Source of the DNA: Escherichia phage OliverMaurmann_Bas86 | Reading direction: 5' to 3' (one strand) | Sequence record: PQ850622.1 | DNA length: 64,000 nt | Part shown: one piece after another, positions 7,318-60,145 of the stretch | How positions within the stretch are numbered: position 1 is the first letter of the stretch | Layout: each line of letters starts with the position of its first letter | Translations under genes and position numbers: made by a program | The notes under the pieces: model-generated | Told to the model about the DNA's origin: nothing | Seen by the model: the letters and a program-made list of their open reading frames with translations, nothing else | Databases searched by the model: none

Positions 7318-7318
7318 T

Positions 7319-48757: not shown

Positions 48758-49120
48758 TTACTCTGCTACCAAAAGGCTCAGAGATTTGCGAATGTAGTCA
48801 ATACTACGGAAGTTTCGATAGTTCTCTTGGAAGCGCATTTTTTCAAACTCTGCTTCCTGAAGCTCTACCTCTGCTGCTTTATATCCTGATAAAGCTAAAC
48901 TTACCACATCCTGAGGTAAGGTATTACGACGGCGAATAAGATATTTATTCGCTTTTAGTTTACCTTGTGCACGAGCCATTTTGGCCTTTGCCGCCTTGAT
49001 ACCATGAGAAATCCAAAGCAGTTGCTGTTTCAGATCTTCCTCATCCATACCACCTAAATCATTTGCTACTTTATGAAGCGTAGACAGGTTCACATGGCCT
49101 TTAATGGGGCGTAGGTTCAT
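48758..49120 (-). CDS. Hypothetical helical protein
   Basis: 120-aa ORF. Confidence 0.5.
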   Translation of the reverse strand: MNLRPIKGHVNLSTLHKVANDLGGMDEEDLKQQLLWISHGIKAAKAKMARAQGKLKANKYLIRRRNTLPQDVVSLALSGYKAAEVELQEAEFEKMRFQENYRNFRSIDYIRKSLSLLVAE

Positions 49121-49284
49121 AACTTCTCCTGTTTGTCACATTGATTGGTTAGCCAGTTGTAAGACCCTCTGTTATTCTTGCTTAACTCGCAAGATGCAAA
49201 AGAGTACATCCTGACAAACCCCACAGTGGCTAAGCAAATAAAGATTGCTGCCAATAAGAATTTAGCTTTCAACTTATTATCCAT
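49117..49284 (-). CDS. Small membrane-anchored protein (55 aa, below track cutoff)
   Basis: MDNKLKAKFLLAAIFICLATVGFV.. RBS agagg. The TGA overlaps the next ATG. Confidence 0.45.
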   Translation of the reverse strand: MDNKLKAKFLLAAIFICLATVGFVRMYSFASCELSKNNRGSYNWLTNQCDKQEKL

Positions 49285-49304
49285 ACAACCTCTTCTTTGA
49301 ACTT

Positions 49305-49329
49305 AAAAAAGGACTCTCATAAGAGAGCC
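49305..49329 (-). terminator. Rho-independent terminator
   Basis: Minus strand reads GGCTCTC-ttat-GAGAGTCC followed by TTTTTT. Confidence 0.8.
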
Positions 49330-49392
49330 AAGCTTTAAGGCCAATTAAATAGATATCACCCAATATCTGTGGATAACCTGCTCTTAAAATAT

Positions 49393-49525
49393 TCTATCCG
49401 ACGGATGTTCGAGGATTATTCCTCTCCCTAGCATCGGCCCCATACGGGAAAGATTAAATTAAGATTAGGTTAGTTGAGCCAGAATAGCTCACATAGCCCT
49501 CTGATACTCACGAGGGCTATAGATG
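49393..49525 (-). repeat. Conserved structured non-coding element, copy 1
   Basis: Aligns with 53929-54055. Contains stop-proximal hairpin ATAGCCCTC/GAGGGCTAT (49493-49520) and inner hairpin GAGGA-ttat-TCCTC (49411-24). Confidence 0.6.
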
Positions 49526-49777
49526 TTACTCTGTATCTCCGTCGAAGCGGAGGATTGCTGTCGGAACAGGAATAACTGCCATGTCAATCTCTAAACGGAA
49601 GAGATGACCTGTGCTCAACTGAACTGCTGTTACCGGCTTAGCGATACCAGCAACAGAGGCAGAAGGGATTCGGATAAAGAATTCCCCCGGATATTCAACC
49701 GAACGAAACACATCTCCCGGTGTCATATCTTTTACTTGAACAGTAGGCTCAGGAGGTGTTTTATTGGAAATTTGCAT
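49526..49777 (-). CDS. Small protein, PGDxF paralog family member 1
   Basis: ..DMTPGDVFR..L.TGHLFRL..VIPVP. Confidence 0.55.
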   Translation of the reverse strand: MQISNKTPPEPTVQVKDMTPGDVFRSVEYPGEFFIRIPSASVAGIAKPVTAVQLSTGHLFRLEIDMAVIPVPTAILRFDGDTE

Positions 49778-50010
49778 TACAAACCTTTCTTAGCACGATC
49801 TTTGGCAGTCTTGCCAGTGCGAATACGGTGGGAAACATTAACCAGTTCGCCGCCTTCGACGATGGTTACGCTTTTATTTTTCGCAATATCGAATACAGTC
49901 TTCTCTGTACCGCCCAGACGAATCTGTTTAGGTTCGCTGTGGGTCTGAGTTGATTTAGACTGGAACTGGAACGGCTGACGGATGGCATCAATTGCGCTAA
50001 CTTTAGACAT
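49777..50010 (-). CDS. Small basic hypothetical protein
   Basis: 77-aa ORF whose stop overlaps the next start. Confidence 0.5.
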   Translation of the reverse strand: MSKVSAIDAIRQPFQFQSKSTQTHSEPKQIRLGGTEKTVFDIAKNKSVTIVEGGELVNVSHRIRTGKTAKDRAKKGL

Positions 50011-50037
50011 GCTTTATTACCTTACATTAAAGAGAGA

Positions 50038-50451
50038 TTAAACAACAAATTGGAACGCTTCGTATCCAAACTTGTATGAGAAGTCATGCTTGAATTTCAC
50101 TACACGACCACGATCACGGAAAGATTTCAGACGACTAATAAAGCCAGCCATCGGCTCAGGGTCAATAGGGCTACGAATCTTCATAGCTACAGAGTGCAGC
50201 TTGAAGCGTTTACCAGTGCTACAGGCCATCATCACATACTCCATACGAGTAGTCCAGATGTTGAGCACCATGCTTGTTTTCTCCGCTGACCAACCAGTCT
50301 TGCGGGCGATTTCTTTATGGACATTAAGCTCCAAAGGAAGAGGGAATTGCTTGTTGAATGAAGCCGGATATAGCTTGACCAGAAGGTCAATGTTTTCTTT
50401 ATACGTTAAGTAAGCCAATTTCTTGCTTACGTTAGGGAATTTCCCAGACAT
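50038..50451 (-). CDS. ProQ/FinO-domain RNA-binding protein candidate
   Basis: LYPASFNKQFPLPLELNVHKEI..SAEKTSMVLNIWTTRMEYV..GKRFKLHS parallels E. coli ProQ FPHCF..RPLKIGIFQDL..LRSALRLYTSSWRYL..GATRVDLDG. Confidence 0.65.
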   Translation of the reverse strand: MSGKFPNVSKKLAYLTYKENIDLLVKLYPASFNKQFPLPLELNVHKEIARKTGWSAEKTSMVLNIWTTRMEYVMMACSTGKRFKLHSVAMKIRSPIDPEPMAGFISRLKSFRDRGRVVKFKHDFSYKFGYEAFQFVV

Positions 50452-50629
50452 TTTTTGAAGCTCCAAAACAGCGCCGAAAAGAGAGGCGTCATAGTAGCTA
50501 AAGGGAGGAGAGAAGAGGGCTTATTTACTTGCCTTTTTCTGTCCGTTAATGTACCAGAGAACTGAGCCATCAGGCTGTCGCTGACCGAAGCCTTTCAGGT
50601 TAACCATTTCTTCTTCAGAGTAGGCACGT

Positions 50630-50893
50630 TTATTCACTGATCTTCTCCACTAAATCCAGAGTTGCCGATTCAAACACAACACCAACTGGCATACTAGGTG
50701 CCATATTACGAACGTATCCACTCTGCATAGACACGGCTCGAGAGTATTCAGAACCGTTAGAGCTTTTGTTTACCTTCATGTAAAGGGTTTGTTCTTTATC
50801 TTCTTTCAGAGTAAAGAAAGAGCCGGGAAGAAGCCCCTGAACAGTCAGAGGGATATCTGCAACATGAGTCTTATTGATAGTAAGAACTGTCAT
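50630..50893 (-). CDS. Small protein, PGDxF paralog family member 2 (divergent)
   Basis: ..GLLPGSFFTL..LYMKV.. Confidence 0.5.
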   Translation of the reverse strand: MTVLTINKTHVADIPLTVQGLLPGSFFTLKEDKEQTLYMKVNKSSNGSEYSRAVSMQSGYVRNMAPSMPVGVVFESATLDLVEKISE

Positions 50894-50896
50894 TGC

Positions 50897-51151
50897 TTAT
50901 TCCTTAATAGTTGCTTCAGCTTTAATAGGAATAACAGCAACATCTTTACGAGGTGCTGTCGCTCGGCCCGTATTAAGACAGGCTACAAGTCTGTGCTCAT
51001 CCGCACCCTTAATACAGAGTCGAGTAGAGAACTCGGTAGACAATAAGATGTACAAATCATCATCTTCACTATTAGGGAACATGAAGCAATCCCCGAGTCG
51101 TAAAGCACTGAGAGGTATTGCATTCTTACCTGCTGGTTTGTTAACTTTCAT
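50897..51151 (-). CDS. Small protein, PGDxF paralog family member 3
   Basis: ..LRLGDCFMF..LYILL..VAVIPI. Confidence 0.5.
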   Translation of the reverse strand: MKVNKPAGKNAIPLSALRLGDCFMFPNSEDDDLYILLSTEFSTRLCIKGADEHRLVACLNTGRATAPRKDVAVIPIKAEATIKE

Positions 51152-51427
51152 TTAACCACCTTTAGTTATGGACCGATTTATGAGAGAACTCTTGGAAGAA
51201 TGCTTTCATAAATAGGGGGAGGGGACGAATCCTCCCATATCCTATTAATTAATATTGCATGTAAGATCTAACAATTCGATGCTGTAGTGGATAGCGTAAA
51301 ACGCTTACCGGCATTAAACCCAGCCCATGAGGGGCTTATGTGAATAAAATGCTCAACATTGAGCGGTTAGTTGATAGGAGATCTGAAGTCCTATCTCAAA
51401 GGACTCTCGTAAGAATCCTTCACGATA

Positions 51428-51694
51428 TTACTTAGTAACAAAGACTGTCACCTTATCCATTACCCAGCCTATCAACATAAGTAAAGGTAAGAAGAGGATA
51501 AAGATCAGCATAAAAGGCCAGAAGAATATCACCGTCCAAATAGAGTATTCATCAGGCTTACCACTCCACGAGGAATGGAAGAAGTTGTAGAGTGTATTGG
51601 TTTTGAAGCACCACTTAACTACAATGGCTGCCAACCACCAACCAATAACATAAATCAGGAGGACATACGCTGCTGTAACCATTGACCGTTCCAT
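51428..51694 (-). CDS. Integral membrane protein (3 TMD)
   Basis: Hydrophobic stretches AAYVLLIYVIGWWLAAIVV and IWTVIFFWPFMLIFILFLPLLMLIGWV. Confidence 0.55.
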   Translation of the reverse strand: MERSMVTAAYVLLIYVIGWWLAAIVVKWCFKTNTLYNFFHSSWSGKPDEYSIWTVIFFWPFMLIFILFLPLLMLIGWVMDKVTVFVTK

Positions 51695-51909
51695 TGATAG
51701 TTGCGAGTGACCACGTTTCCGTGGATAAGAAAGTGCTGTCGACGAAGGGTATCTTTAACGTTGTAATAGGCAGCGTTTCCAAGATGGCCTTCTTTGATAA
51801 GCCAACGCAGGTTGCGAATACCAACTAACAACATAAGTACTTGTTGCTTGTATGAAGTTTGAGCTGCTGTTTCAAGTAGAGCTTTCGTATCAGAATAATG
51901 ACCGGACAT
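51655..51909 (-). CDS. Hypothetical protein
   Basis: 84-aa ORF. Confidence 0.45.
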   Translation of the reverse strand: MSGHYSDTKALLETAAQTSYKQQVLMLLVGIRNLRWLIKEGHLGNAAYYNVKDTLRRQHFLIHGNVVTRNYQWNGQWLQQRMSS

Positions 51910-51910
51910 A

Positions 51911-52237
51911 TCACCACTCCTTACCTGTTGTTGTCACAGAGCCACCACACAGCTCACCACGGGAGATGAAGTCATAACGTGACCAATCACCTTGGGTAGC
52001 CATATCACGCTTTGCATAAGCCTTCTCGTCAACAGCACCGCCATTGGAACAAGAAGCACCAGCATAATGCATATCAATTTCTCCACTAGGAATCTTCTCT
52101 CCGCTATGCCAACGGGAAACACAGACACCTTCTACAGATAATGCACACCATCCATCAGGACGATGCTGTACGCAGCCTGTAAGAGCTACACAGGCGATAA
52201 AGATACAGGTTAAGGTAATTACACCACCCCAACTCAT
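51911..52237 (-). CDS. Lipoprotein
   Basis: ITLTCIFIACVALTGCVQH contains the lipobox LTGC. Confidence 0.6.
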   Translation of the reverse strand: MSWGGVITLTCIFIACVALTGCVQHRPDGWCALSVEGVCVSRWHSGEKIPSGEIDMHYAGASCSNGGAVDEKAYAKRDMATQGDWSRYDFISRGELCGGSVTTTGKEW

Positions 52238-52374
52238 GATCCCTCCTGAAGCGCCTTACGGCGGCTATCTCGCCAAGCCATCCATAGGTAGGTTTTAAGT
52301 TCTTCTCTTTCTTCTTCTCTGAACAAAGGAGAAGTAAAGATATCATCGAACCACTCATTAAACTCAGGGGTCAT
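52234..52374 (-). CDS. Small acidic protein (46 aa, below track cutoff)
   Basis: Strong RBS aggaggg. MTPEFNEWFDDIFTSPLFREEEREELKTYLWMAWRDSRRKALQEGS. The TGA overlaps the next ATG. Preferred over track ORF 52155..52358. Confidence 0.55.
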   Translation of the reverse strand: MTPEFNEWFDDIFTSPLFREEEREELKTYLWMAWRDSRRKALQEGS

Positions 52375-52392
52375 AAACCCTCCTACGTTGAT

Positions 52393-52470
52393 TGGTGCAC
52401 CCTACAGGATTCGAACCTGTAACCGACGACTTAGAAGGTCGCTACTCTAATCCAATTGAGCTAAGGGTGC
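52393..52470 (-). tRNA. tRNA-Arg (anticodon UCU), CCA encoded
   Basis: Minus strand reads GCACCCTTAGCTCAATTGGATTAGAGTAGCGACCTTCTAAGTCGTCGGTTACAGGTTCGAATCCTGTAGGGTGCACCA. 7-bp acceptor stem GCACCCT/AGGGTGC, anticodon loop CTTCTAA, T-loop GGTTCGAATCC. Confidence 0.9.
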
Positions 52471-52479
52471 TAGATTTAT

Positions 52480-52689
52480 TTAACTAAAGATACGAATGGC
52501 TACATCGTGACCAATATGACCGGGAACTTTATGCTGCTCTATTTTCAGACAGCGCTTACAGATACGAGATACACGAGACTCTTTTCTCTCGACTGGAGTG
52601 TCTTTTGCGTGAGTGATTTGAAGGTTTTCAGTGATCACCCACTCATGTTTACACTCAGAATCTTCGGGCTTTTTCTTACGAAAGAACAT
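52480..52689 (-). CDS. Small zinc-ribbon protein (family with 52698, 52872, 62203)
   Basis: ATG at 52689. ..CKHEW..CKRC.. Confidence 0.5.
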   Translation of the reverse strand: MFFRKKKPEDSECKHEWVITENLQITHAKDTPVERKESRVSRICKRCLKIEQHKVPGHIGHDVAIRIFS

Positions 52690-52697
52690 AACACCTC

Positions 52698-52862
52698 TTA
52701 GATCAGATCTGTTTTCTTGTGCAGACCACACACTTTACAGCGAGAGTAGATACGCAACCCTTGTCGCTCTCTGTCAGTAAGTTTATTTGTGATCGTCAGT
52801 TCATAAGTAGAAAGATCTTCCCACTCATGGAAATGAAATAGACGTTTGAACCATTTGATCAT
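52698..52862 (-). CDS. Small zinc-ribbon protein (54 aa, below track cutoff)
   Basis: MIKWFKRLFHFHEWEDLS..RCKVCGLHKK. RBS aaggaa. Confidence 0.5.
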   Translation of the reverse strand: MIKWFKRLFHFHEWEDLSTYELTITNKLTDRERQGLRIYSRCKVCGLHKKTDLI

Positions 52863-52871
52863 AATGATTCC

Positions 52872-53018
52872 TTAGATTATGTCACGACGACTAACTTCAC
52901 CACACACCTTACACTGGATAACGTAACGTACGCCCCTTGCATCTCCACAGATCAGCGGACGGGTGTCGATAATCTTCCAATCATGACAATGGAAGACACG
53001 CTTTAGCCACTTAATCAT
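52872..53018 (-). CDS. Small zinc-ribbon protein (48 aa, below track cutoff)
   Basis: MIKWLKRVFHCHDWKIID..QCKVCGEVS. Paralog of 52698..52862. Confidence 0.5.
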   Translation of the reverse strand: MIKWLKRVFHCHDWKIIDTRPLICGDARGVRYVIQCKVCGEVSRRDII

Positions 53019-53019
53019 A

Positions 53020-53277
53020 TTAAGCACACGCCGGTAGTTCAATTAACTGAGGAGTACGACAAGGACCGTCTTCATACACACCAACCAACGTTGGCATGTA
53101 AGGCCCAGCGCACTGGTATTCGTCGAACAGTTCATTGTAAGTAGGCTTCCACTTCCAAGCCCACACATAACCCATTCGGTCAATGGCAATGTAACGAGTG
53201 TTCAGAGGAACTTGCATCATTACATCACCAACTGCTATTACTTTCGTAATAACTGCTGCTCGGAAGTTTGTCTTCAT
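53020..53277 (-). CDS. Hypothetical protein
   Basis: 85-aa ORF. Confidence 0.5.
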   Translation of the reverse strand: MKTNFRAAVITKVIAVGDVMMQVPLNTRYIAIDRMGYVWAWKWKPTYNELFDEYQCAGPYMPTLVGVYEDGPCRTPQLIELPACA

Positions 53278-53525
53278 GGTGATTTAATCTCAATCTGAAC
53301 ATTGACAACAAATACAGTATGGTTTGCACTGTACACCGAAGTGCCGATGATTGGCTTATCATCACTGAGGATTTCAACAGCGTGATCGAGGTTGATCTTC
53401 AGATGAAGACGACCTGATTCCATGAAGAAATCACCAGCACGTATCTCACCGAACTTAGCTGGCACACCGATAGAAGGTATCAGTATGTCAGTGCGACCTT
53501 TACGGTCAAATAAACGATTGAACAT
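53274..53525 (-). CDS. Small protein, PGDxF paralog family member 4
   Basis: ATG at 53525 behind gagagg, downstream of terminator 53569-99. ..IRAGDFFM..LHLKI.. Confidence 0.5.
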   Translation of the reverse strand: MFNRLFDRKGRTDILIPSIGVPAKFGEIRAGDFFMESGRLHLKINLDHAVEILSDDKPIIGTSVYSANHTVFVVNVQIEIKSP

Positions 53526-53568
53526 ATCAACCTCTCTTGTTAGTTTAAGTAAGAGTTGTCCCTTAATT

Positions 53569-53599
53569 AAAACAACAAAGGCCACCCCGAAGGGCAGCC
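53569..53599 (-). terminator. Rho-independent terminator
   Basis: Minus strand reads GGCTGCCC-ttcg-GGGTGGCC followed by TTTGTTGTTTT. Confidence 0.7.
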
Positions 53600-53608
53600 C
53601 ATTATTAA

Positions 53609-53749
53609 TTATCCACCGTAGAACCAATCACCTTGACGCTTACGGATGTTAGTTGTCAGACGAAGCATGGCAGACTCAATCTTCAGAGCACCATTTGCTA
53701 CTGCATCCATACGTTCAGGACGGTTCATACGTTTGGTTGTCTTCTTCAT
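53609..53749 (-). CDS. Small basic protein (46 aa from ATG 53749)
   Basis: MKKTTKRMNRPERMD.. The upstream part of track ORF 53609..53884 overlaps a hairpin-rich non-coding stretch. Confidence 0.4.
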   Translation of the reverse strand: MKKTTKRMNRPERMDAVANGALKIESAMLRLTTNIRKRQGDWFYGG

Positions 53750-53788
53750 ATCGTTCTCTCTTTGTTGGTGGAGGCAGGTTTGCCAGTT

Positions 53789-53822
53789 AATATAAAGGGA
53801 AGCCCTACACGTTAAGGCTTCC
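53789..53822 (-). terminator. Terminator-like hairpin
   Basis: Minus strand reads GGAAGCC-N11-GGCTTCC followed by CTTTATATT. Confidence 0.45.
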
Positions 53823-53928
53823 GCTTGTACAAACTGTCGAGAACTCTCTACCCCTAGATTGTTCTCTATCCCAAACCGATACATACCCCTACATATCGGA
53901 AAGCTGTTCGAAAATTAACAGGTTTTAG

Positions 53929-54055
53929 TCTATCACCGGATGTTTGAGACAAGTCTCGCCCTAGCGGTGAGCCATATGGCGTTGAGATTATAGTTAATTG
54001 AGGAACACCCTCACATAGCCCTCTGATAGACACAAGGGCTATAAGTCGATGTTAC
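53929..54055 (-). repeat. Conserved structured non-coding element, copy 2
   Basis: Aligns with 49393-49525. Stop-proximal hairpin at 54015-54042. The inner hairpin is GAGAC-aa-GTCTC (53946-57), a compensatory change relative to copy 1. Confidence 0.6.
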
Positions 54056-54286
54056 TTAACCATTGATATGAGTTACTTGAACATCAGGTACAGGGATAAC
54101 TTCATGGTCTTCCTGTAATTGGAACAGTGTCCCCTGACTAAGACCAACCACACGATGCATATCGTTAAGTCTAGTGTCTGTCTTTAGGTAGACATTTTCA
54201 GAGTTAGTTGGTAAACGGAACACATCGCCCGGACGTAACTCACTGAGCTTTTTAGTAACAACTACAGAGAAGAGATTAATTTTCAT
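54056..54286 (-). CDS. Small protein, PGDxF paralog family member 5
   Basis: ..LRPGDVFRL..VYLKT..GTLFQL..VIPVP. Confidence 0.55.
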   Translation of the reverse strand: MKINLFSVVVTKKLSELRPGDVFRLPTNSENVYLKTDTRLNDMHRVVGLSQGTLFQLQEDHEVIPVPDVQVTHING

Positions 54287-54474
54287 TTGATTAACACCAA
54301 ATCAGTACGACGTTCGAAGGAAGGGGAGGATTCACCATTCCACTGAACAAGATAACAGAGAACACCATCAATCGTTGTTCTCCGACGAATAACACCTGTA
54401 ACAGTTCCACCAACAAGGCGAACGGTGTCGCCAACGGTAAATTTAACCTTTGAGCGCATCTCCTGTTTCCTCAT
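54283..54474 (-). CDS. Small SH3/KOW-like protein (start uncertain)
   Basis: ..KFTVGDTVRLVGGTVTGVIRRR..YLVQWNGE. The long track ORF to 54612 overlaps the upstream gene. Confidence 0.4.
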   Translation of the reverse strand: MRKQEMRSKVKFTVGDTVRLVGGTVTGVIRRRTTIDGVLCYLVQWNGESSPSFERRTDLVLIK

Positions 54475-54748
54475 TCTGGCGTTTAATTTCTTCAGTGAGT
54501 TGCTTATTAAGATCTTGAATACGCTTAATCTCCCAACCCAAAGAAGCCAAACGATCGTTACGTGCTTCGATTTGTTCCTGCATTTTAAGTAATTTGGAAC
54601 GAACATCAGCATTAAAAACTTCTTCTTGCTTAAGAAGGAACTCGTAACGACGCTTCCAGCTTGCTGATTTATTTCTTAAAACAATAAACCCTAGAGTAGA
54701 AACCGTTACAGTGAGTACGAAAAGGAACTTATAAACCTCTAAAGACAT
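54443..54748 (-). CDS. Membrane-anchored coiled-coil protein
   Basis: N-terminal TMD FLFVLTVTVSTLGFIVL followed by a charged helix. Confidence 0.55.
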   Translation of the reverse strand: MSLEVYKFLFVLTVTVSTLGFIVLRNKSASWKRRYEFLLKQEEVFNADVRSKLLKMQEQIEARNDRLASLGWEIKRIQDLNKQLTEEIKRQNEETGDALKG

Positions 54749-54949
54749 ATCTTTATCCTCTTAAAGTAAGATATTATAAGAAATATTATTTAGAATTTAT
54801 TATTTCTAAACTTAATTTCTATCAATAATTTTCAGAGGTCTATATACAGTCATTACCTCTGGTCCCAAATCACTTCCACTTTTTACAGAGAAAATCATAA
54901 GTGTGTGATTTATAAGGAAATTTAGTTTGTCAATATTGGCACCTATGAA

Positions 54950-55336
54950 TCAGTCACGGGAGCTATTATTGAACACTAAATCACCACAATACATCGGATT
55001 GGTATACCACTTTGGCACCCCTTCGCTCTTACTCTGAAAGTATGTACCGCTGTACAAAGGCACATAATCTTTCTTCAGTGCACGTCTTGCAAGCCGCTCG
55101 CTCTCTCTGATTGATCTCTTTATCAGAGAGTTATCATCACGAATTAGCTTTACATAACGCTTAAAAGGTTTCTCCTTCTTTAATAGGACGGGTATCCACT
55201 CGAACTGGTTTCGTTGATTTATAACCTGCTCGGCAGTCAGTTTTCGTTGTGACATTCTGTTTATTACGGTATCCGCTACTAATGCTTTGCAAGCGGTTGG
55301 CTGATTCCCTGCCTCATAATAAATAGTCAATGTCAA
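54950..55336 (-). CDS. SleB-type cell wall hydrolase (Hydrolase_2) homolog
   Basis: IYYEAGNQP..ALVADTVINRM..VINQRNQFEW matches E-A..AV..V-x-NR..V-x-x-x-x-QF. TTG start; the upstream frame is open to 55363. Confidence 0.65.
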   Translation of the reverse strand: MTLTIYYEAGNQPTACKALVADTVINRMSQRKLTAEQVINQRNQFEWIPVLLKKEKPFKRYVKLIRDDNSLIKRSIRESERLARRALKKDYVPLYSGTYFQSKSEGVPKWYTNPMYCGDLVFNNSSRD

Positions 55337-55389
55337 AAGTAGCTGGGCTGTCGTTATCAGAACTTACTACCCCCTTGTTTTACGGGCAT

Positions 55390-55415
55390 AAAAAAGCCCC
55401 ATCCGAAGACGGGGC
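55390..55415 (-). terminator. Rho-independent terminator (third of three)
   Basis: Minus strand reads GCCCCGTC-ttcg-GATGGGGC followed by TTTTTTAT. Confidence 0.85.
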
Positions 55416-55470
55416 GACCTGAAAGAGTGAACATGACCTCACTCATTTAAGAATCCTCGAAAAGACTCTT

Positions 55471-55494
55471 AAAAAAGCGGCCTCGTTAAAGGCC
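55471..55494 (-). terminator. Rho-independent terminator (second of three)
   Basis: Minus strand reads GGCCT-ttaacg-AGGCC-gc followed by TTTTTT. Confidence 0.65.
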
Positions 55495-55574
55495 CGGTCA
55501 AATGACCATCCAATAGGGGTTGAACCATGCCAATGATTCACAAAGGGAGTTCCCTTTAGGTATCACTAGCTACG

Positions 55575-55596
55575 CAAAAAGCCGCACAAAGGCGGC
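55575..55596 (-). terminator. Rho-independent terminator (first of three)
   Basis: Minus strand reads GCCGC-ctttgt-GCGGC followed by TTTTTG. Confidence 0.65.
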
Positions 55597-55655
55597 AGAC
55601 ACAAAGACGCTCAAGAAGAGCGTCATAGTAGTTGACTACTGGTACAGAAGAGGGC

Positions 55656-56099
55656 TTACTTAACTCTTGCTGTTTTGAGTGGGTCAATATATTTTTCAAC
55701 TCCCCACTTATGCTTACTATCAGCGTAGAAAACATCTGGTGCACATTGGCTAGTAGTAGGAAATGCTTTCGGTGGCTTAGTGCTACCTTTATTCTTCTGC
55801 TTACCTTTAGTGCGACCGTTACAAAAGATTTCTAAACGTTTTTCTTGTTCTGTTTTTGCTGCACCGTTGGTTAACAGAGAACGCTTGTGATCAGCAAGAA
55901 GAAGAGCATCAGCACGATGAACACGACGACCTAACACCTTCGCTACGGTAGAAGGTTTATGTTCTTGAGCGGCTTGTTTGATAGCTCTTCGTTTAAGGCT
56001 ACGTTTGCTAATATGGTTAACAGCGGCTGGCTTTTCTTTTTCCAGCTCACTCATAGAGAACACTCGTCCGCCTTTCATGCTGATTTTAGATTTAGCCAT
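55656..56099 (-). CDS. Basic hypothetical protein
   Basis: 147-aa K/R-rich ORF. A TATAAT hexamer at 56128-56133 (minus) lies upstream. Confidence 0.55.
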   Translation of the reverse strand: MAKSKISMKGGRVFSMSELEKEKPAAVNHISKRSLKRRAIKQAAQEHKPSTVAKVLGRRVHRADALLLADHKRSLLTNGAAKTEQEKRLEIFCNGRTKGKQKNKGSTKPPKAFPTTSQCAPDVFYADSKHKWGVEKYIDPLKTARVK

Positions 56100-56169
56100 T
56101 TCTTTATTCCTTTCGCTGATAAATTATATCGTGCAAGCCTTACCACATAGCAAGGCTTAACCAAATAAC

Positions 56170-56379
56170 TTAATCAATTAAACTAAACGATTTCCAACTA
56201 CGTGTAATTGCTACCTTTTCGCCATCAAAGAGAACACTTACAGAGATCAGTTTACCGCGACAACTGGATACCGTGGTAATACGTCCGGTTAATGCCTTAC
56301 CTTTATTCAGGTAGTGATAGCGGACACGACGTCCTAACAAACGAGTAGCTTTCTTCTCTAACGTGCTTAAGCTGGTCAT
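56170..56379 (-). CDS. Small hypothetical protein
   Basis: 69-aa ORF whose start overlaps the upstream stop. Confidence 0.5.
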   Translation of the reverse strand: MTSLSTLEKKATRLLGRRVRYHYLNKGKALTGRITTVSSCRGKLISVSVLFDGEKVAITRSWKSFSLID

Positions 56380-56600
56380 TAAATAGCCCCTTTATATTGG
56401 AGTGATCTTACACGACGATACATAACAGTTGATGCACTAATCGCCGCTTGTTTTCTTTCGTGCTCATGCTGATTCTTTCGAATCTTATCCATCTCGGCAT
56501 CATTACGACGACGTTGTAAGATTCTGCTACATTTGCGATGGTTATTATTAGCACGTGCTTTCTTACAGATAGGGCACAAATGGGATTGAGTTAAGATCAT
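56379..56600 (-). CDS. Small basic Cys-containing protein
   Basis: HLCPICKK..HRKC, then R/K-rich. Confidence 0.5.
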   Translation of the reverse strand: MILTQSHLCPICKKARANNNHRKCSRILQRRRNDAEMDKIRKNQHEHERKQAAISASTVMYRRVRSLQYKGAI

Positions 56601-56830
56601 TTGCGTAACCCCAGCTTACGAAGGAATCGGCCTAACTTAGTTTCTTGCGTGATAGTGTAAGTAACAGAGTTATCAATCAAGGCTTGTTCTTGAATCGGCG
56701 ACGGATACCATTCACCGGTAAGAATGCATTTGCATTCGATTCCATATCTATCGGTTTTACGATAGGTCATATTGTTTAAGATATTACGATACATCTTAAC
56801 TTCTGTTTTCAATTTTGGCATGGTGATCAT
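56597..56830 (-). CDS. Small hypothetical protein
   Basis: 77-aa ORF, coupled. Confidence 0.5.
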   Translation of the reverse strand: MITMPKLKTEVKMYRNILNNMTYRKTDRYGIECKCILTGEWYPSPIQEQALIDNSVTYTITQETKLGRFLRKLGLRK

Positions 56831-56875
56831 CTCTTTTTAGTTTCTTTGATTAGCACACTGAATCAATGCACTAGT

Positions 56876-56908
56876 AAAAGAAAAGGCGCTACCCTTTCGA
56901 ATAGCGCC
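56876..56908 (-). terminator. Rho-independent terminator
   Basis: Minus strand reads GGCGCTA-N10-TAGCGCC followed by TTTTCTTTT. Confidence 0.8.
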
Positions 56909-56927
56909 CCATGTGTTTTATTGTTGG

Positions 56928-57830
56928 TTATGCTGCCAGTTGGCGTGCCGCCATAATCTCGGCAGCTTTGCGTAACACTTCCTCTTCTTCCTGCGCAGCT
57001 TTCTCATTAGCTTTGACAGTTGAAGCGTTTGAGATACGACCGCGAAGGTTAGACAATTTTTCAGTCATTTCATTGATCACCTTTTCCATTTCATCGGCGT
57101 ACGAGTCCAGAGATTCAAGCTCTTTAGTTGAGGCATTAATCAGGTAGTCATCGCTGATAGAAACAGTTGAAGCGGTTACTTTCTTAAGGAGTGAATCGAA
57201 AGTTTTCTTAACTTTGCCTACTTCTTCACTCAATGCGATAGTATTGTCAGAAGATGCGCCGTTGCGTTCATCTGCCAGTAGTGCCGCTTCAATACGGATT
57301 GCAGCCAGACGGTCAACCAGTGCATAAATATCCTGATTAAAGTTTTCGTTAACCTTCTGGTTGATCTGGTTTGCTACCGGAACATTGTCGTTGCAACCTT
57401 TGTAGAATGCTGGGTTATCAACCTGCACGTCTTCACCTTTAGCAAAGCGTTCAAAGGAATTAGACCAGCGGGCGCGGTTTTGTTCCATTTTGGCCTTAAC
57501 TTGTTCCGGTTTAGCATCCTCTTTCGCTTTCGCTTCACCTTCCAGATTAATCCATTTCTTTTTACCGTTCGCCCCGTCGCTGTTGTACTTGATCGGGGTT
57601 AAGAAAGAGATGGCAACCGCAATCACGTCTAAGTCACGATAACGCTCAGTTAACAAGAAATCAACCGCCGCCTGCAATACATCCAGTTTCTTACCGTTGG
57701 TGCGGAAGTGCTGCAAATGGCCTAACAGGAAGTTAGAAACATCTTGTTTGATTGCCGCGTTGTTGCTACGAATGTTGTTAGCCAGTGCATTAAAGCCGGA
57801 TTCGTTAACCAGATTAAAAACTTTAGCCAT
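56928..57830 (-). CDS. Helical early protein of unknown function (300 aa)
   Basis: ATG at 57830 behind ggtga (the track start at 57839 is GTG). First long gene after the promoter/boxA array. Confidence 0.6.
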   Translation of the reverse strand: MAKVFNLVNESGFNALANNIRSNNAAIKQDVSNFLLGHLQHFRTNGKKLDVLQAAVDFLLTERYRDLDVIAVAISFLTPIKYNSDGANGKKKWINLEGEAKAKEDAKPEQVKAKMEQNRARWSNSFERFAKGEDVQVDNPAFYKGCNDNVPVANQINQKVNENFNQDIYALVDRLAAIRIEAALLADERNGASSDNTIALSEEVGKVKKTFDSLLKKVTASTVSISDDYLINASTKELESLDSYADEMEKVINEMTEKLSNLRGRISNASTVKANEKAAQEEEEVLRKAAEIMAARQLAA

Positions 57831-57898
57831 GATATTCACCTTTCAATTGTAAGGGCACTATGCCCCCGCTCTCTATGAGCTTTTTAAGTCACTATTGA

Positions 57899-57938
57899 CT
57901 TATCAATAATCACTCAATATCAAGTAATTATTGATAAG
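57899..57938. repeat. Perfect 12-bp inverted repeat with 16-nt spacer
   Basis: CTTATCAATAAT (57899-910) and ATTATTGATAAG (57927-938), 70-110 nt upstream of ATG 57830. Confidence 0.8.
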
Positions 57939-58650
57939 CGAGGCGGTCTTATCAGGAGTTAACCTTGCCGCCTCCTTATCCGTGATGTTTCATCTGGTAT
58001 CTTTAATTAGTCGCTATAAATAAAGCCGACCTGATAGCGATGATCAATCATCACAATAAGGCAGTGCGTCCGACTCTATTTAATTACTTTATCGTAACCG
58101 TCGGCAATATCGTCTACTTTGCTTTCGCTCCCGCCTATCCTTTTGTACTAACTCTCAATCGCTAACCATCGCCCACTACGGGAGGTTATTGCGAAAGAGT
58201 CATTAGCCGTCTAATGCATTGACGTTTTATATCTTTCAGCAGGTTTACTACATAAACTGATTATGTACGCCATCAATAGTGGCCTCAAATCATTCACATC
58301 GTAAACGTTCACACTAAACCTTATTGTTAAATAGCAATTTGCCACTTTTTAACCATTCACCGCCGCCCCCAATTGGGCGTTAATTCGTCGGATTTGCCTA
58401 CCCTGATAAACTTCTTTCACTGTAGCACCTTGTTAGCGATGGCCGCCGCTACCCTTTAACCGTGGGCGATTAGTTTAGGCCGTTGCGTGTACTCAATGAA
58501 TCCGTTTTATCAGTGGTGACGTTTCCAGTTAAGGGATTGTAAAAACTGTTTACCCTGATAATTTAGGGAGTCTTACGCCGTTTTATCTGGTATGTTTTCC
58601 GATGGTTATTATCATCCAACATATTCAACCGATATAGGAGAATGTTTAAA

Positions 58651-58663
58651 TTGTTAAAGAGCG
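58651..58663 (-). promoter_or_regulatory. rrn-type boxA-like element, copy a (CGCTCTTTAACAA)
   Basis: Minus strand reads CCGCTCTTTAACAATTTAAAC. Hairpin AGTGTG/CACACT (58675-92) lies just upstream on the transcript. Confidence 0.65.
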
Positions 58664-58750
58664 GTAAATCTATCAGTGTGCTTTCTCACACTATGCAACT
58701 GTTAGCCGTTGTTACGCTTTTCTTAAGCGGTGAATTGCTTAAGTGTGCTC

Positions 58751-58779
58751 ATTATGAATCATGCTGTTTTAGCTGTCAA
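58751..58779 (-). promoter_or_regulatory. Sigma70-type promoter P-a
   Basis: TTGACA (58779-74), 17-nt spacer, CATAAT (58756-51). A-rich upstream flank. Confidence 0.65.
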
Positions 58780-58881
58780 CCGCTTTTTTAATCTTTTTCG
58801 TCGTTCCCTTTATTGGGAGGATATATCAATCAGCTATATTTGATTGAAGATTAAGCGGTAAGGCTTAACTCACGATTCATA

Positions 58882-58894
58882 TTTTTAAAGAGCG
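58882..58894 (-). promoter_or_regulatory. rrn-type boxA-like element, copy b (CGCTCTTTAAAAA)
   Basis: One mismatch to copy a. Confidence 0.55.
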
Positions 58895-58917
58895 GTGTTT
58901 CTTACTGCTTGGTGAAC

Positions 58918-58944
58918 ATTCTATCAGAGTGTTCACCTTGTCAA
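58918..58944 (-). promoter_or_regulatory. Sigma70-type promoter P-b (extended -10)
   Basis: TTGACA (58944-39), 15-nt spacer, TG-a-TAGAAT (58923-18). Confidence 0.55.
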
Positions 58945-59016
58945 CTCTTTTTATCATCTTCTTTTATTCTATTCCCTTATCTCGCTTGAATCTATGCGAA
59001 AGGGCAAGATGATAAA

Positions 59017-59029
59017 TTGTTAAAGAGCG
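59017..59029 (-). promoter_or_regulatory. rrn-type boxA-like element, copy c (CGCTCTTTAACAA + TTTATCA)
   Basis: Minus strand reads GGCAC-tta-GTGCC-CCGCTCTTTAACAATTTATCATC. The hairpin at 59031-59043 immediately precedes it. Confidence 0.7.
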
Positions 59030-59075
59030 GGGCACTAAGTGCCGGATGTTTCAAGTCATCGCTGACCGTGTGAAC

Positions 59076-59103
59076 ATCTTATCATAGTGATTCGATGTGT
59101 CAA
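59076..59103 (-). promoter_or_regulatory. Sigma70-type promoter P-c (extended -10)
   Basis: TTGACA (59103-098), 16-nt spacer, TG-a-TAAGAT (59081-76). AAAAATAG lies upstream. Confidence 0.65.
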
Positions 59104-59165
59104 CAACTATTTTTCGATTAATGCATCTTGATAAACTAGCGACCGTTAAGGCCGCTAACCTTACC

Positions 59166-59366
59166 TTAGTTCATACGTTTAAAGGTTAAATCTTTATCCG
59201 TACTTACCAGCGATAACACCGCAATAGCTTTGCCTTTATCGGCATCGGCTACCATCTCTTTTGCCTGCTGTAATGTACTACCGACTATTCTCATAATCAT
59301 GTTAGTAACGTTAATGCTAGTGCAAGTGATTTGCGTGTCTTTGCTTGAGAAGGTGTAGATGTTCAT
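59166..59366 (-). CDS. Small hypothetical protein
   Basis: ATG at 59366 behind gagga is preferred over the track start at 59405. Confidence 0.5.
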   Translation of the reverse strand: MNIYTFSSKDTQITCTSINVTNMIMRIVGSTLQQAKEMVADADKGKAIAVLSLVSTDKDLTFKRMN

Positions 59367-59420
59367 TGATAAATCCTCGTTATGGCATGGTTGAGAGTTT
59401 ATCAAGATACACTAATCGAA

Positions 59421-59433
59421 TTATTAAAGAGCA
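59421..59433 (-). promoter_or_regulatory. rrn-type boxA-like element, copy d (TGCTCTTTAATAA)
   Basis: Preceded on the transcript by hairpin GGCTA-gatgtt-TAGCC (59450-35). Confidence 0.6.
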
Positions 59434-59491
59434 AGGCTAAACATCTAGCCTATCAGGAGGTAACTTACTGCATCGCGTCCTGACAAGATTC

Positions 59492-59519
59492 AATATACAC
59501 TATCCTAAAACCGTTGCAA
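59492..59519 (-). promoter_or_regulatory. Sigma70-type promoter P-d
   Basis: TTGCAA (59519-14), 16-nt spacer, TATATT (59497-92). Confidence 0.5.
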
Positions 59520-59681
59520 GCCTTTTTCTAAAATAATTTCACTTTCTTTTAGGTATAGAGGAACACGCGCACGAATAACATCAAGGGAGGAAGAAAACAA
59601 GCATTATAATCAAAAGCTAGGCATGTAGGAGGCGTTCTAACGAGATAAACAGGGGCAAGATGTGCAATCACCTTAGAAATG

Positions 59682-59705
59682 AAAAAAGCGCCTCAAAAGG
59701 GCGCT
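59682..59705 (-). terminator. Rho-independent terminator
   Basis: Minus strand reads AGCGCC-cttttg-aGGCGCT followed by TTTTTC. Confidence 0.8.
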
Positions 59706-59725
59706 TAGAGAGTCTTACGGGTTGG

Positions 59726-60052
59726 TTACGGATTGGTGCAAGTGCCGTTACCTGATGCTATTTCGTTCATCGACTCATCGAACAACGTCATGCTAGACCG
59801 CATCATGTGATCAATGGTGATTTGCTTGCCTGTTGTCTGATTGACCAGCATTGCAGACTTACTATCAACTATCTTGCTGTCGTAGTCGTTCAGGTCAATC
59901 AATATTGCCTTGCTGGACTTCTTGCCAGTGTCGTAGTTTTCCATTAGATAGGTGCATTGCAGACCATCTAAACTGGCCTCGTTGAATACGGCAGCATGTG
60001 ACACGGAAGAAACAGCGAACAAGGCAGCACATACAGCTAATTTAATTTTCAT
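59726..60052 (-). CDS. Secreted (Sec signal peptide) small protein
   Basis: MKIKLAVCAALFAVSSVSHA-AV. Confidence 0.6.
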   Translation of the reverse strand: MKIKLAVCAALFAVSSVSHAAVFNEASLDGLQCTYLMENYDTGKKSSKAILIDLNDYDSKIVDSKSAMLVNQTTGKQITIDHMMRSSMTLFDESMNEIASGNGTCTNP

Positions 60053-60145
60053 GATTCAACCTCAAGAAGAACGTGCAACAAAGAAAAACAAGTCATAGAT
60101 AAATGCTATGATACAGAGAACTAACAGACAATGCAAAAAAAATAC

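Follow-up and report, generated by a model that had tools for sequence, protein, structure and literature searches.

Conserved intrinsic terminators and boxA-bearing tandem promoters in the early region of Escherichia phage OliverMaurmann_Bas86

Promoters and leader of the early region

The window analysed in this study comprises 64,000 bp of Escherichia phage OliverMaurmann_Bas86 (acc. no. PQ850622.1), a Suseptimavirus/Kuravirus (phiEco32-like) podophage. The following promoters, leader elements and genes of its early region are located on the minus strand:

61301–61328, minus strand: P1, sigma70 promoter (TTGACA-16-TATAGT), start of a separate four-gene immediate-early operon
59676–59706, minus strand: T1, intrinsic terminator (AAGCGCC CUUUUGA GGCGCUU UUUUCAUUUC)
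59519–59492, minus strand: P2, sigma70 early promoter
59103–59076, minus strand: P3, sigma70 early promoter
58944–58918, minus strand: P4, sigma70 early promoter with a 15-nt spacer
58779–58751, minus strand: P5, sigma70 early promoter
59451–59434, 59043–59031, and 58691–58676, minus strand: boxB-like hairpins (none at P4)
59432–59421, 59028–59017, 58893–58882, and 58662–58651, minus strand: rrn-consensus boxA copies
57840–58667, minus strand: conserved, highly structured, ORF-free leader RNA of ~0.8 kb, between boxA4 and the first long gene
56928–57830, minus strand: first long early gene (300 aa, phrog_13018)
39471–39713, minus strand: homologue of gp79, the RNAP-binding switch protein of phiEco32 (PDB 9m7y chain G, E = 4e-34)

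P1, the counterpart of the SU10 promoter 'upstream of CDS125', drives the genes at 61166–59726, and its transcript carries no boxA. The T1 hairpin (59706–59686) is followed by UUUUUUCAUUUC; Kuravirus relatives have another stem (AAGCCUCGCUAUGAGGCUU) with an unchanged tail, and T1 is listed as a terminator for SU10 and annotated in SU7. A preliminary description of this DNA had placed T1 inside the long early operon and had held read-through to be unnecessary wherever downstream genes possess promoters of their own. T1 instead ends the separate, boxA-less P1 operon (61328 to 59726), and it drops out by that very measure because four promoters come after it.

Promoters P2–P5 and their antitermination-like modules form a block at 58651–59519 (minus strand), in which P4 is expected to be weaker because of its short spacer. 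The four consensus boxA copies are all on the sense strand, each 19–82 nt downstream of a sigma70 promoter start; five boxA matches were found versus 1.25 expected, again all in sense orientation. Though the flanks diverge, every relative examined harbored four or five copies. A boxB-like hairpin precedes boxA in three of the four modules, and the one before boxA4 displays an invariant purine-rich loop (GUGAGAAAGCAC) and a stem that covaries among relatives. Within one boxA region, 19 nt (GCTCTTTAACAATTTATCA) are identical to the E. coli rrnB leader, with a similar boxB loop.

The leader RNA was found at full length in 97 of 97 related phage records. Its fold comprises 237 pairs with 99.2% of cells paired, its folding z-score is −5.9, and 60 pairs were changed on both sides compared to 2–8 in slid controls. 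A leader–trailer helix was also predicted, but a wider alignment gave no support for it. The 300-aa product is encoded by the sole gene between the leader and the next terminator, T2. T2 and all later terminators are probably inside one early unit of ~25 kb, which runs from P2–P5 (59.5–58.75 kb) towards the first phage-sigma promoter, near 33.8 kb. The gene for the gp79 homologue lies ~19–20 kb downstream of P2–P5, behind all early terminators.

Intrinsic terminators of the early unit

Outside of a cluster at 55.6–55.4 kb, the following sites were identified in this unit:

56875–56910, minus strand: T2, strong intrinsic terminator (hairpin 56910–56883, stem 11–12 bp, GAAA loop, tail UUUUCUUUU)
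53798–53822, minus strand: hairpin with a poor U-tract (tail CUUUAUAUUA), Suseptimavirus only
53569–53599, minus strand: intrinsic terminator (hairpin 53599–53580, UUCG loop, tail UUUGUUGUUUU)
49305–49329, minus strand: intrinsic terminator (hairpin 49329–49312, tail CUUUUUU)

All eight hairpin-plus-U sites proposed earlier were found, on the minus (coding) strand and in intergenic positions, four of them 9–31 nt past a stop codon. At the level of sequence, they are confirmed as authentic Rho-independent terminators, located on the strand that host RNAP (sigma70) transcribes in the early unit. Between 45 and 64 kb, 35 terminator-like sites were counted versus 13.2 ± 3.6 in shuffled sequences. 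A stricter scan of positions 49000–61400 yielded six sense and no antisense terminators versus 0.35 ± 0.67 in 150 dinucleotide shuffles, none of which reached six (0/150). Terminator density in the early region was about twice that of the middle-gene region (seven sense and two antisense in 31.5 kb) and about four times that of the late region.

Most sites are kept across two genera with compensatory stem changes, and those common to Suseptimavirus, Kuravirus, phiEco32, and Bas92 differ by compensatory or loop-only changes. T2, located 18 nt past the stop codon of the 300-aa gene with the next gene at 56830, retains its stem across the two genera, has a variable loop and is annotated as a terminator in the SU7 record. 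A basic ORF of 46 aa has its stop codon 9 nt before the terminator at 53599, of which four versions with a constant stem and a varying loop were detected across genera. The terminator at 49329 closes a structured ORF-free gap of 240 nt (z = −4.5) and is immediately followed by the ribosome-binding site of the next gene (start at 49284); the terminator stem is preserved in TH06 via G-U changes, and the terminator is annotated in SU7. The site at 53822–53798 had been graded as weaker, and indeed a good hairpin is combined there with a poor tail; this element probably acts as a weak terminator or as a stabiliser. Intergenic hairpins without U-tracts also recur in the operon, represented by a 34-nt repeat at 49521 and 54043.

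The terminator cluster at 55.6–55.4 kb

In the cluster, the following elements were distinguished:

55606–55624, minus strand: conserved 3'-end hairpin of a 147-aa gene, weak U-tract (UUUGUGUCUG)
55576–55596, minus strand: terminator 3a (GCCGC CUUUGU GCGGC UUUUU; hairpin 55596–55581, five GC pairs)
55425–55575, minus strand: Suseptimavirus-specific ORF-free cargo insert of ~150 nt, very structured and highly conserved
55570–55529, minus strand: long hairpin in the insert (~20-bp extended stem; AAAGGG/CCCUUU at 55557–55542)
55494–55479 (hairpin) and 55476–55471 (U-run), minus strand: terminator 3b, inside the insert (GC spacer, then UUUUUU)
55474–55447, minus strand: 12-bp hairpin in the insert
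55444–55425, minus strand: hairpin GAGUGA-GGUCAUGU-UCACUC in the insert
55390–55415, minus strand: terminator 3c (GCCCCGUC UUCG GAUGGGGC UUUUUU; hairpin 55415–55396, stem 8 bp)

This cluster had been described as a triple terminator. Its three sites are real, but a fourth hairpin (55624–55606) with a weak U-tract, which is missing in Kuravirus relatives, is also present. Terminator 3a is kept in Kuravirus, phiEco32, and Bas92, and 3c is 100% conserved within the genus, shows a compensatory U-A to G-C change in Kuravirus and is annotated in the records of SU7, Paul, WFI101126, and 4E8. The two ORF-free segments noticed earlier were recovered together with their AAAGGG/CCCUUU and GAGUGA/UCACUC hairpins. 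At the same slot, Kuravirus carries ~60 nt in which the stem is swapped and the loop conserved, KBNP1711 a 41-aa membrane-peptide ORF with a ribosome-binding site, and phiEco32 an extra 226-aa gene with its own terminator just after the tandem pair. The triple terminator thus consists of two ancestral tandem members (55596 and 55415) on either side of a hot spot for variable inserted cargo, and the Suseptimavirus cargo is an ORF-free structured RNA module carrying its own terminator (55494). Moron-type insertions likewise consist of variable cargo between or beside conserved terminators at one hot spot, and a gene that comes with a terminator of its own is also what phiEco32 shows; in contrast, the cargo at this slot has no promoter and, in Suseptimavirus, is non-coding.

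A 29-aa peptide had been considered as a coding candidate here. Neither this ORF nor a 32-aa ORF annotated in some relatives nor other small ORFs were conserved among 12 close relatives, because frame-shifting 1-nt indels are present (alignment columns 226, 277, and 326). Alternatively, the hairpins could have mainly post-transcriptional roles, stabilising 3' ends and providing RNase III/E with processing sites on a polycistronic transcript, with the ORF-free units as stable 3'-UTR-derived, terminator-ended sRNAs acting on trans targets. Conservation of units A and B (97.9% and 95.5%) exceeds that of the flanking coding sequence (87.8%), and the region shows an extreme degree of structure (z = −5.6 to −6.4, the lowest value for a 271-nt stretch of the cluster). 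UUCG and GAAA tetraloop hairpins are typical phage stabilisers (PMC8948821, discussion), and the repeated U-less hairpins elsewhere in the operon would fit as well. However, discrete small RNAs, as offered in the preliminary description, found no support, since neither unit is preceded by a promoter, both are confined to one genus (Suseptimavirus) with no compensatory changes within it, and no Rfam match was obtained; the weak matches of unit B, all to sRNA families of the hairpin-plus-terminator type, stayed far under the family thresholds. BLAST against E. coli genomes revealed no similarity or extended complementarity to the units, and the canonical U-tracts argue that the sites act during transcription, too. 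Mainly post-transcriptional roles thus appear improbable.

Read-through and candidate antitermination

That every downstream gene has its own promoter, which would make read-through dispensable, holds after T1 but not after T2 or the cluster, where no credible promoter was found. No promoter-like sequence was seen in the 55 nt that separate T2 from the ribosome-binding site after it. The same was true for the stretch from 55390 to 55336, which is invariant among relatives and precedes a cell-wall-hydrolase-like gene (54950–55336, minus strand; PF07486), the first gene whose expression depends on passage of RNAP through the cluster. The region contained fewer promoter-like matches than expected by chance (20 vs 43.5), and in the early region the motif of the phage sigma factor (gp36) had no exact match and one-mismatch matches at about chance frequency. 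In the published promoter map of the relative SU10, only three promoters in the leader spacer and one ahead of the first cluster precede the middle promoter P68, and the SU10/phiEco32 map shows no early promoters downstream of the leader. Since T2 and the cluster are not followed by a credible promoter and separate P2–P5 from the distal early genes (gp79 at 39.7 kb among them), read-through past T2 and the 55.6–55.4 kb cluster is predicted to be required. For phage 7-11, read-through has also been stated to be needed, with an antitermination strategy that 'remains to be defined' (PMC8948821).

Efficient stops could instead split the region into independent units whose downstream genes are served by unrecognised promoters, so that antitermination would be unneeded. 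T1, with promoters after it, behaves in this way. Further downstream, an AT-rich stretch harbors a perfect TATAAT (54776–54771) that lacks a −35 element; SU7 annotates a promoter here, ahead of the gene that begins at 54748. In the SU7 record, BPROM promoters are annotated at three places (after T2, ~54.8 kb, and ~51.4 kb), and weak matches were detected at 53042, 52885, and 51451. Weak internal promoters like the TATAAT may count against read-through. However, the promoter-free stretches after T2 and before the hydrolase gene, the rarity of promoter-like matches and the SU10/phiEco32 map argue against independent units, and in several cases (49329; 55415 in Bas92) the terminator abuts the next ribosome-binding site, the layout of a read-through junction. 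We therefore consider independent units rather unlikely.

The best explanation, to which we assign a probability of about 0.5, would be Nus-factor antitermination loaded at the boxA copies of P2–P5, with leaky terminators in a long early unit. Since each of these promoters is followed by an rrn-type boxA, three of four with a boxB-like hairpin, RNAP is most likely Nus-loaded and would leave the leader with a host Nus complex of NusB/NusE on boxA plus NusA, NusG, and SuhB. Its first job would be to carry RNAP over 0.8–1.3 kb of untranslated structured leader without Rho termination; its second would be to speed up RNAP and give it partial resistance to the terminators further downstream, perhaps with the aid of a candidate phage factor. 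The terminators would serve as leaky attenuators and 3'-end formers, which would halt unmodified polymerases, grade expression along the operon and cause RNAP to reach distal early genes, among them gp79, with a delay. Regarding the boxA-linked conditional read-through proposed earlier, the genuine sites, the need for read-through and a reasonable link to boxA thus stood, whereas we only infer that boxA and Nus factors overcome these terminators.

For the boxA copies, a simpler account is sufficient, namely the long untranslated structured leader (0.8–1.3 kb), which would otherwise be a Rho target. Ribosomal RNA operons themselves end at intrinsic terminators. Complexes of the rrn type are known chiefly for acting against Rho and perform poorly at intrinsic terminators; in the rrn elongation complex, hairpins can form in the exit channel without restriction, and only NusA-assisted stabilisation is lost (PMC8632103). 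A phage antiterminator of the N, Q, or Xp10-p7 type or an HK022 put-like cis RNA in the leader could act together with the Nus complex or in its stead; boxA would then belong to a nut-like site, and host factors alone would confer Rho resistance only. Besides the poor performance at intrinsic terminators, this is suggested by the loop and covarying stem before boxA4, as expected of a protein-binding site, by the 0.8-kb structured RNA immediately behind it and by the 300-aa phrog_13018 product of the only gene from the leader to T2. A 46-aa ORF with an Arg/Lys-rich N-terminus between two terminators (53749–53609) and gp79, which enters the RNA channel of RNAP (PMC12276001), also fit, but both are encoded downstream of the terminators to be overcome, and the literature reports no antitermination activity of gp79. 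Moreover, no N-, Q-, or P7-like factor was recognised by Pfam and PHROG among the ten proteins encoded upstream, the hairpin precedes boxA, which is the order of rrn leaders, whereas in lambda nut sites the hairpin follows boxA, and the purine-rich loop occurs in only one of four promoter–boxA modules. A phage factor is thus possible but doubtful.

The proposed Nus-based antitermination in Bas86 can be compared to several known systems. The lambdoid N/nut system (pL, pR; tL1, tR1) likewise shows a host-RNAP early operon broken by several terminators, a short first unit closed by a terminator, distal early genes that need read-through and a leader-RNA boxA adjoining a hairpin. In contrast, Bas86 is a virulent podophage with no recognised N homologue, its boxA fits the rrn consensus (GCUCUUUAACAA), of which lambda has a weaker form, and it displays four tandem modules with the hairpin 5' of boxA and the structured leader RNA. 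With E. coli rrn operons (P1/P2, boxB-boxA-boxC, Nus/SuhB, T1/T2), it shares tandem strong promoters, a hairpin followed by a consensus boxA (including the 19 nt of rrnB and a similar loop, GAGAAA(A)GC), a long structured untranslated RNA directly downstream and a tandem terminator pair further on. Unlike rrn, the Bas86 unit runs on into ~25 kb of protein-coding genes, boxC was not seen, and RNAP has to get past several intrinsic terminators instead of stopping at them. A function of boxA in extended untranslated transcripts is known from CRISPR arrays, where it is also found at the 5' end of an unusually long transcript, though directed against Rho only and without intrinsic terminators or downstream coding genes (PMC7665894). 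HK022 put RNA and Xp10 p7 represent a cis element or small phage protein at the start of an early operon which causes host RNAP to ignore intrinsic terminators; p7, like gp79, blocks sigma70 initiation, but gp79 is encoded far downstream.

The right-end leader of Salmonella phage 7-11 contained no rrn-type boxA, and the mechanism is therefore not general to all phiEco32-like phages. The leader at 58.67–57.84 kb represents an undescribed structured RNA of ~0.8 kb with 60 covarying pairs. Altogether, conserved terminators combined with boxA at tandem promoters offer a testable answer to how phiEco32-like phages reach their later genes.

Terminators of the leftward early unit

The region at 49.3–59.7 kb was 92–96% identical to Escherichia phages vB_EcoP-101114UKE3, MLP3, SU7, ECBP2, EK010, and NC-B, all of them Gordonclarkvirinae of the genera Suseptimavirus and Kuravirus, i.e., phiEco32-like podophages of C3 morphology. 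Phages of this group serve as a model of sigma factors and RNA polymerase (RNAP) inhibitors encoded by phages. Their early genes are transcribed leftward from the right end by the host sigma70 RNAP, after which the phage sigma factor gp36 and the RNAP-binding protein gp79 take over (PMC12276001; PMC8948821). The features of this unit are listed below, with terminators named by the 5' coordinate of their hairpin.

Features of the early region and the gp79 gene
61328-61301, minus strand, promoter P1 of a separate operon
59706, minus strand, terminator T1
59.5-58.75 kb, minus strand, four tandem sigma70 promoters P2-P5, each followed by a boxA copy (boxA1-boxA4)
58667-57840, minus strand, ORF-free leader RNA
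57830-56928, minus strand, first long early gene (300 aa)
56910, minus strand, terminator T2
55624-55606, minus strand, additional hairpin
55596, 55494, and 55415, minus strand, triple terminator cluster
55575-55425, minus strand, cargo insert of the cluster
53822, minus strand, hairpin with poor tail
53599, minus strand, terminator
52393-52470, tRNA-Arg(UCU), sole RNA gene recognised in the window
49329, minus strand, terminator
39713-39471, minus strand, homologue of the phiEco32 switch protein gp79 (PDB 9m7y chain G, E = 4e-34)

All hairpin-plus-U sites of the preliminary description were found on the minus strand. GC-rich hairpins with an immediate U-rich tract on the transcribed strand were present at 59706, 56910, 55596, 55415, 53599, and 49329, while a 2-nt spacer separates hairpin and U-run at 55494. 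Every site is intergenic, and four sit 9–31 nt past a stop codon. The picture of an early unit punctuated by sense-oriented terminators was confirmed with three corrections. The site at 53822, already described as weaker, combines a good hairpin with a poor U-tract; a further conserved hairpin (55624), absent from the earlier list, has a tail of merely UUUGUGUCUG; and T1 ends a separate operon of four genes transcribed from P1, whose transcript carries no boxA and which is followed by promoters. T1 is not an internal site.

A tool scan of 45–64 kb detected 35 terminator-like sites, compared to 13.2±3.6 in shuffled sequences. With a stricter definition (a single compact hairpin at -9 kcal/mol or below, with a following 7-nt tract of no fewer than 5 U that contains UUU), the stretch 49000–61400 revealed six sense and no antisense sites, a number reached by none of 150 dinucleotide shuffles (0.35±0.67). 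Since the same scan also gave a sense bias in the middle-gene region (31.5 kb; seven sense, two antisense; late region, two and one), sense internal terminators are a style of this genome, about twice as dense over the initial 10 kb of the early unit.

The whole cluster is kept in 12 Suseptimavirus genomes. Positional homologues were compared in the kuraviruses TH06, TH38, PH444, Paul, NJ01, KBNP1711, and a metagenomic contig, as well as in Bas92 and phiEco32, and were identified across this set for T1, T2, 55596, 55415, and 53599. Stems were maintained by compensatory or G-U changes at T1 (differing stem AAGCCUCGCUAUGAGGCUU, same tail), 55415 (U-A to G-C), and 49329, which was found in only one kuravirus, TH06, with its stem retained via G-U changes. 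Variation was confined to the loop at T2 and at 53599, the latter showing a single stem with four loop versions. A few of these sites are already annotated as terminators in the GenBank records of SU7, Paul, WFI101126, and 4E8; the SU10 paper lists T1 as the sole terminator of the early region.

Several further elements were observed in the region. A motif leading into hairpin 55624 (CUACUAUGACGC, 55613–55631) is repeated 5 kb downstream at 50479–50497, also between genes. Two copies of a 34-nt hairpin (UAUAGCCCUC...GAGGGCUAUGUGAG), 91% identical and lacking a U-tract, occur at 49488–49521 and 54010–54043. Both directly follow a gene in sense orientation; the element was found again in relatives and may serve in processing or stabilisation. 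A structured ORF-free gap of 276 nt (51152–51427, minus strand, z = -4.3) harbors a hairpin GGGAGGAUUCGUCCCCUCCC (51236–51217) kept in three of four kuraviruses scanned (TH06, PH444, and Paul). Between hairpin 53822 and terminator 53599 lies a 46-aa ORF (53609–53749, minus strand) with an Arg/Lys-rich N-terminus (MKKTTKRMNRPERMD...), which might, speculatively, encode an RNA-binding peptide. A 108-aa protein (51911–52237, minus strand) matched PDB 9rps chain D (E = 7e-13), solved as a "phage lipoprotein", and the gene-poor region separating the divergent early clusters (about 61400–62500) contains many short repeats with ACCCAT/CCCAT, which look iteron-like and may be related to the terminal repeat or an origin.

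The triple terminator and its cargo

The 271 nt spanning the cluster (55655–55385) fold as a chain of hairpins (-105.9 kcal/mol compared to -73.0±5.2 in shuffles, z = -6.4). Only 55596 and 55415 are common to the clusters of both genera. Most kuraviruses have about 60 nt between their homologues, comprising the hairpin GCAAC-GGUCAUGUG-UUGC and then UUUCAGGU, while the equivalent hairpin in the window is GAGUGA-GGUCAUGU-UCACUC, again followed by UUUCAGGU; the stem is wholly swapped, whereas loop and 3' flank are retained. KBNP1711 (locus L017, about 3800–3940) harbors an insertion between both terminators with a gene for a 41-aa hydrophobic peptide preceded by a good ribosome-binding site. In phiEco32 (sense-strand positions 7157–7865 of the reverse-complemented locus L096), an additional gene of 226 aa follows right after the terminator pair and has its own terminator (GCCUCUCCC GAAA GGGAGGGGU), and in Bas92 the junction of 55415 and AAAACAGGAGGU precedes a different gene. 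Thus, the differing inserts indicate that the pair flanks a cargo hot spot, which would be useful for engineering therapeutic-candidate phages of this group.

The Suseptimavirus cargo is non-coding and carries the third terminator, 55494. A coding role of units A and B, the two terminator-bounded segments inside the cluster, was ruled out in agreement with the preliminary description: their small ORFs lack ribosome-binding sites and cross terminators, and 1-nt indels shift the frames in close relatives. Conservation of the cargo exceeds that at the end of the adjacent gene, with a mean pairwise identity of 97.9% and 95.5% in the two units compared to 87.8%. The suggestion that both units yield discrete small RNAs found no support. 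No sigma70-like promoter was found before unit A or unit B, though terminators are present, and Rfam gave no family match for them. Folding is strong (z = -6.4), conservation is high, and relative to Kuravirus the stem is swapped around a kept loop; among 12 near-identical relatives, there were no compensatory pairs. We consider it improbable that the elements act mainly after transcription and that small RNAs are released from them.

Downstream of terminator 55415, a strong ribosome-binding site (55337–55362, minus strand; 6246–6275 in locus L101) reads AAGGGGG in the window and AGGAGGU in Kuravirus, with no ATG, GTG, or TTG at a suitable distance. The hydrolase-like frame is open from just past this site and has an in-frame CTG about 9 nt downstream; the stretch from terminator to hydrolase gene, including the site, does not vary among genomes. 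The same junction of terminator and ribosome-binding site leads, in Bas92, to the ATG of another gene. Thus, the junction appears to be portable, or translation starts at a non-canonical codon.

Promoters, boxA modules, and the leader RNA

The possibility that each downstream gene has its own promoter, making read-through unnecessary, holds for T1 and fails for the remaining sites. Nothing promoter-like was detected in the 55 nt from T2 to the next ribosome-binding site or in the invariant stretch from 55390 to the hydrolase-like gene. Sigma70-like matches in the region were below chance (20 vs. 43.5±6.7). No exact copy of the gp36 promoter motif was detected in the early region, where one-mismatch matches were at chance level; a one-mismatch copy elsewhere (33794–33802) corresponds to the published middle promoter P68. 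The SU10 promoter table, which rests on phiEco32 experiments, has a single promoter ahead of the first cluster, three more within the leader spacer, and no further one until P68. Hidden promoters could still serve the downstream genes, e.g., at 54776–54771, where a perfect TATAAT without -35 element may act as a weak promoter, but we found no convincing promoter for the units or the genes behind them and give this explanation only a small chance.

Searching the whole 64 kb for the boxA pattern GCTCTTTAAMAA with one mismatch allowed resulted in five occurrences (1.25 expected), all of them minus-strand and within 59432–58324. Four are good copies (consensus GCUCUUUAACAA), identical to the boxA of the E. 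coli rrnB operon, and each lies 19–82 nt past the start of its promoter (P2, P3, P4, or P5). The fifth, GCUAUUUAACAA at 58335, is base-paired within the predicted structure of the leader RNA and is probably structural. In every relative examined, boxA is kept in four or five copies despite diverging flanks. The promoter/boxA stretch (59165–58668, minus strand) is very structured (z = -6.5), and three of the four copies have a boxB-like hairpin directly 5' of boxA. In the hairpin preceding boxA4 (58691–58676), the stem shows covariation around the invariant GUGAGAAAGCAC, and the loop is similar to that of the host rrnB boxB (UGAGAAAAAGCG). Moreover, boxA2 plus 7 nt forms a 19-mer (GCTCTTTAACAATTTATCA, 59028–59010) that is identical in the rrnB leader. 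A boxC like UGUGUGGG, by sequence inspection, does not follow any of the four copies and thereby distinguishes them from rrnB. In rrn antitermination, boxC is dispensable.

Between boxA4 and the first long gene lies a conserved, structured RNA of about 0.8 kb that contains no ORF. In an alignment of nine genomes (88% mean identity), RNAalifold predicted 237 pairs. Among the aligned cells, 99.2% were paired, compared to 92.3±0.4% with shuffled and 34–47% with slid partners; 60 pairs were changed on both sides (2–8 with slid partners), and the covariation score was 0.280 (0.03–0.06). The folding z-score was -5.9, and the leader is present at full length in 97 of 97 related phage records. A closing helix of boxA4 with AGAGAGCGG (57874–57866), predicted by RNAalifold on nine sequences, was withdrawn after three of 14 aligned sequences broke a pair; in this larger alignment, a compensatory change in PAS59 (U-A to C-G) favours the local hairpin GCUC-AUAGA-GAGC instead.

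At gathering and permissive thresholds, Rfam matched tRNA-Arg alone and nothing for cluster, leader, or boxA region. BLAST against 5,426 E. coli genomes returned no match for cluster or leader, so that neither is host-derived over any length. The literature searched contains no mention of the leader, apparently an undescribed large structured RNA, which may be the most novel feature of the region.

Proposed passage of the terminators by host RNA polymerase

The preliminary description suggested that conditional read-through is linked to boxA. The boxA copies proved to be real, conserved, and placed after every one of P2–P5; the link itself is reasonable, and we infer it from this arrangement. 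We assign a probability of about one half to the reading that a Nus complex assembled on boxA carries RNAP through the leader and then confers partial resistance to the downstream terminators. Polymerases starting at P2–P5 would acquire the host Nus complex at boxA, which would bring them across the untranslated leader and render them partly resistant to the hairpins beyond. In this case, the terminators would serve as leaky attenuators and 3'-end formers, halt unmodified polymerases, and delay the making of gp79, the gene of which lies about 19–20 kb downstream of P2–P5, behind all of the terminators described here.

The weak point of this reading lies in the rrn-type complexes, the documented action of which is against Rho; they remove the help of NusA to terminator hairpins but leave hairpin formation itself unblocked (PMC8632103). 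boxA is also known to protect long untranslated RNA from Rho (PMC7665894). Since the leader is a long untranslated RNA of this type, boxA is sufficiently explained without the intrinsic terminators.

The closest rival would add a phage cofactor, or a cis-acting role of the leader RNA, as a requirement for passage. We regard it as rather unlikely: no antiterminator family of Pfam or PHROG was detected among ten proteins upstream of and around the cluster, where the only notable match was Hydrolase_2 in the gene after the cluster. The 300-aa protein revealed no PDB relative and no similarity to gp151 of Salmonella phage 7-11. The absence of an antiterminator family also speaks against a lambda-type N/nut system, for which an arginine-rich N-like protein would be expected upstream of the first terminator and in which, moreover, boxB lies 3' of boxA, while the phage hairpin lies 5' of it. 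A search for more distant phages by way of the hydrolase protein led only to Suseptimavirus, Kuravirus, and unrelated phages. Passage by the Nus complex, a phage cofactor, hidden promoters, and a post-transcriptional role are not mutually exclusive.

A wider proposal appears possible to us, though doubtful as a whole. The subfamily would mimic a host rRNA operon with tandem strong promoters, boxB-boxA leaders, and a structured RNA of about 0.8 kb, the rrn-like leaders having been either copied from rrn or converged on it. Either by itself or helped by a small cofactor from the phage, the ribosomal antitermination complex would act on an early unit of about 25 kb and pass at least six conserved terminators in vivo, so timing the arrival of RNAP at gp79, and the ORF-free units would be processed to stable small RNAs.

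For Salmonella phage 7-11, antitermination was explicitly postulated, with a strategy described as yet to be defined (PMC8948821). Phage 7-11 (locus L099, 88864–89916) likewise has a GC-rich, ORF-free leader of about 1 kb before its first early gene. This leader revealed no rrn-type boxA and no match to a covariance model of one coliphage leader-RNA domain, so that 7-11 must rely on something else.

Altogether, the arrangement, as far as we infer read-through, belongs with terminator-punctuated early operons under boxA-dependent antitermination. It adjoins a large structured RNA and bears on a question left open in the literature on this phage group. The map of terminators to be passed, the rrn-consensus boxA at P2–P5, and the position of the gp79 gene behind all terminators make the route of host RNAP to the distal early and middle genes experimentally addressable. 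If rrn-type complexes do pass strong intrinsic terminators here, the view of their Rho-specificity would need revision.
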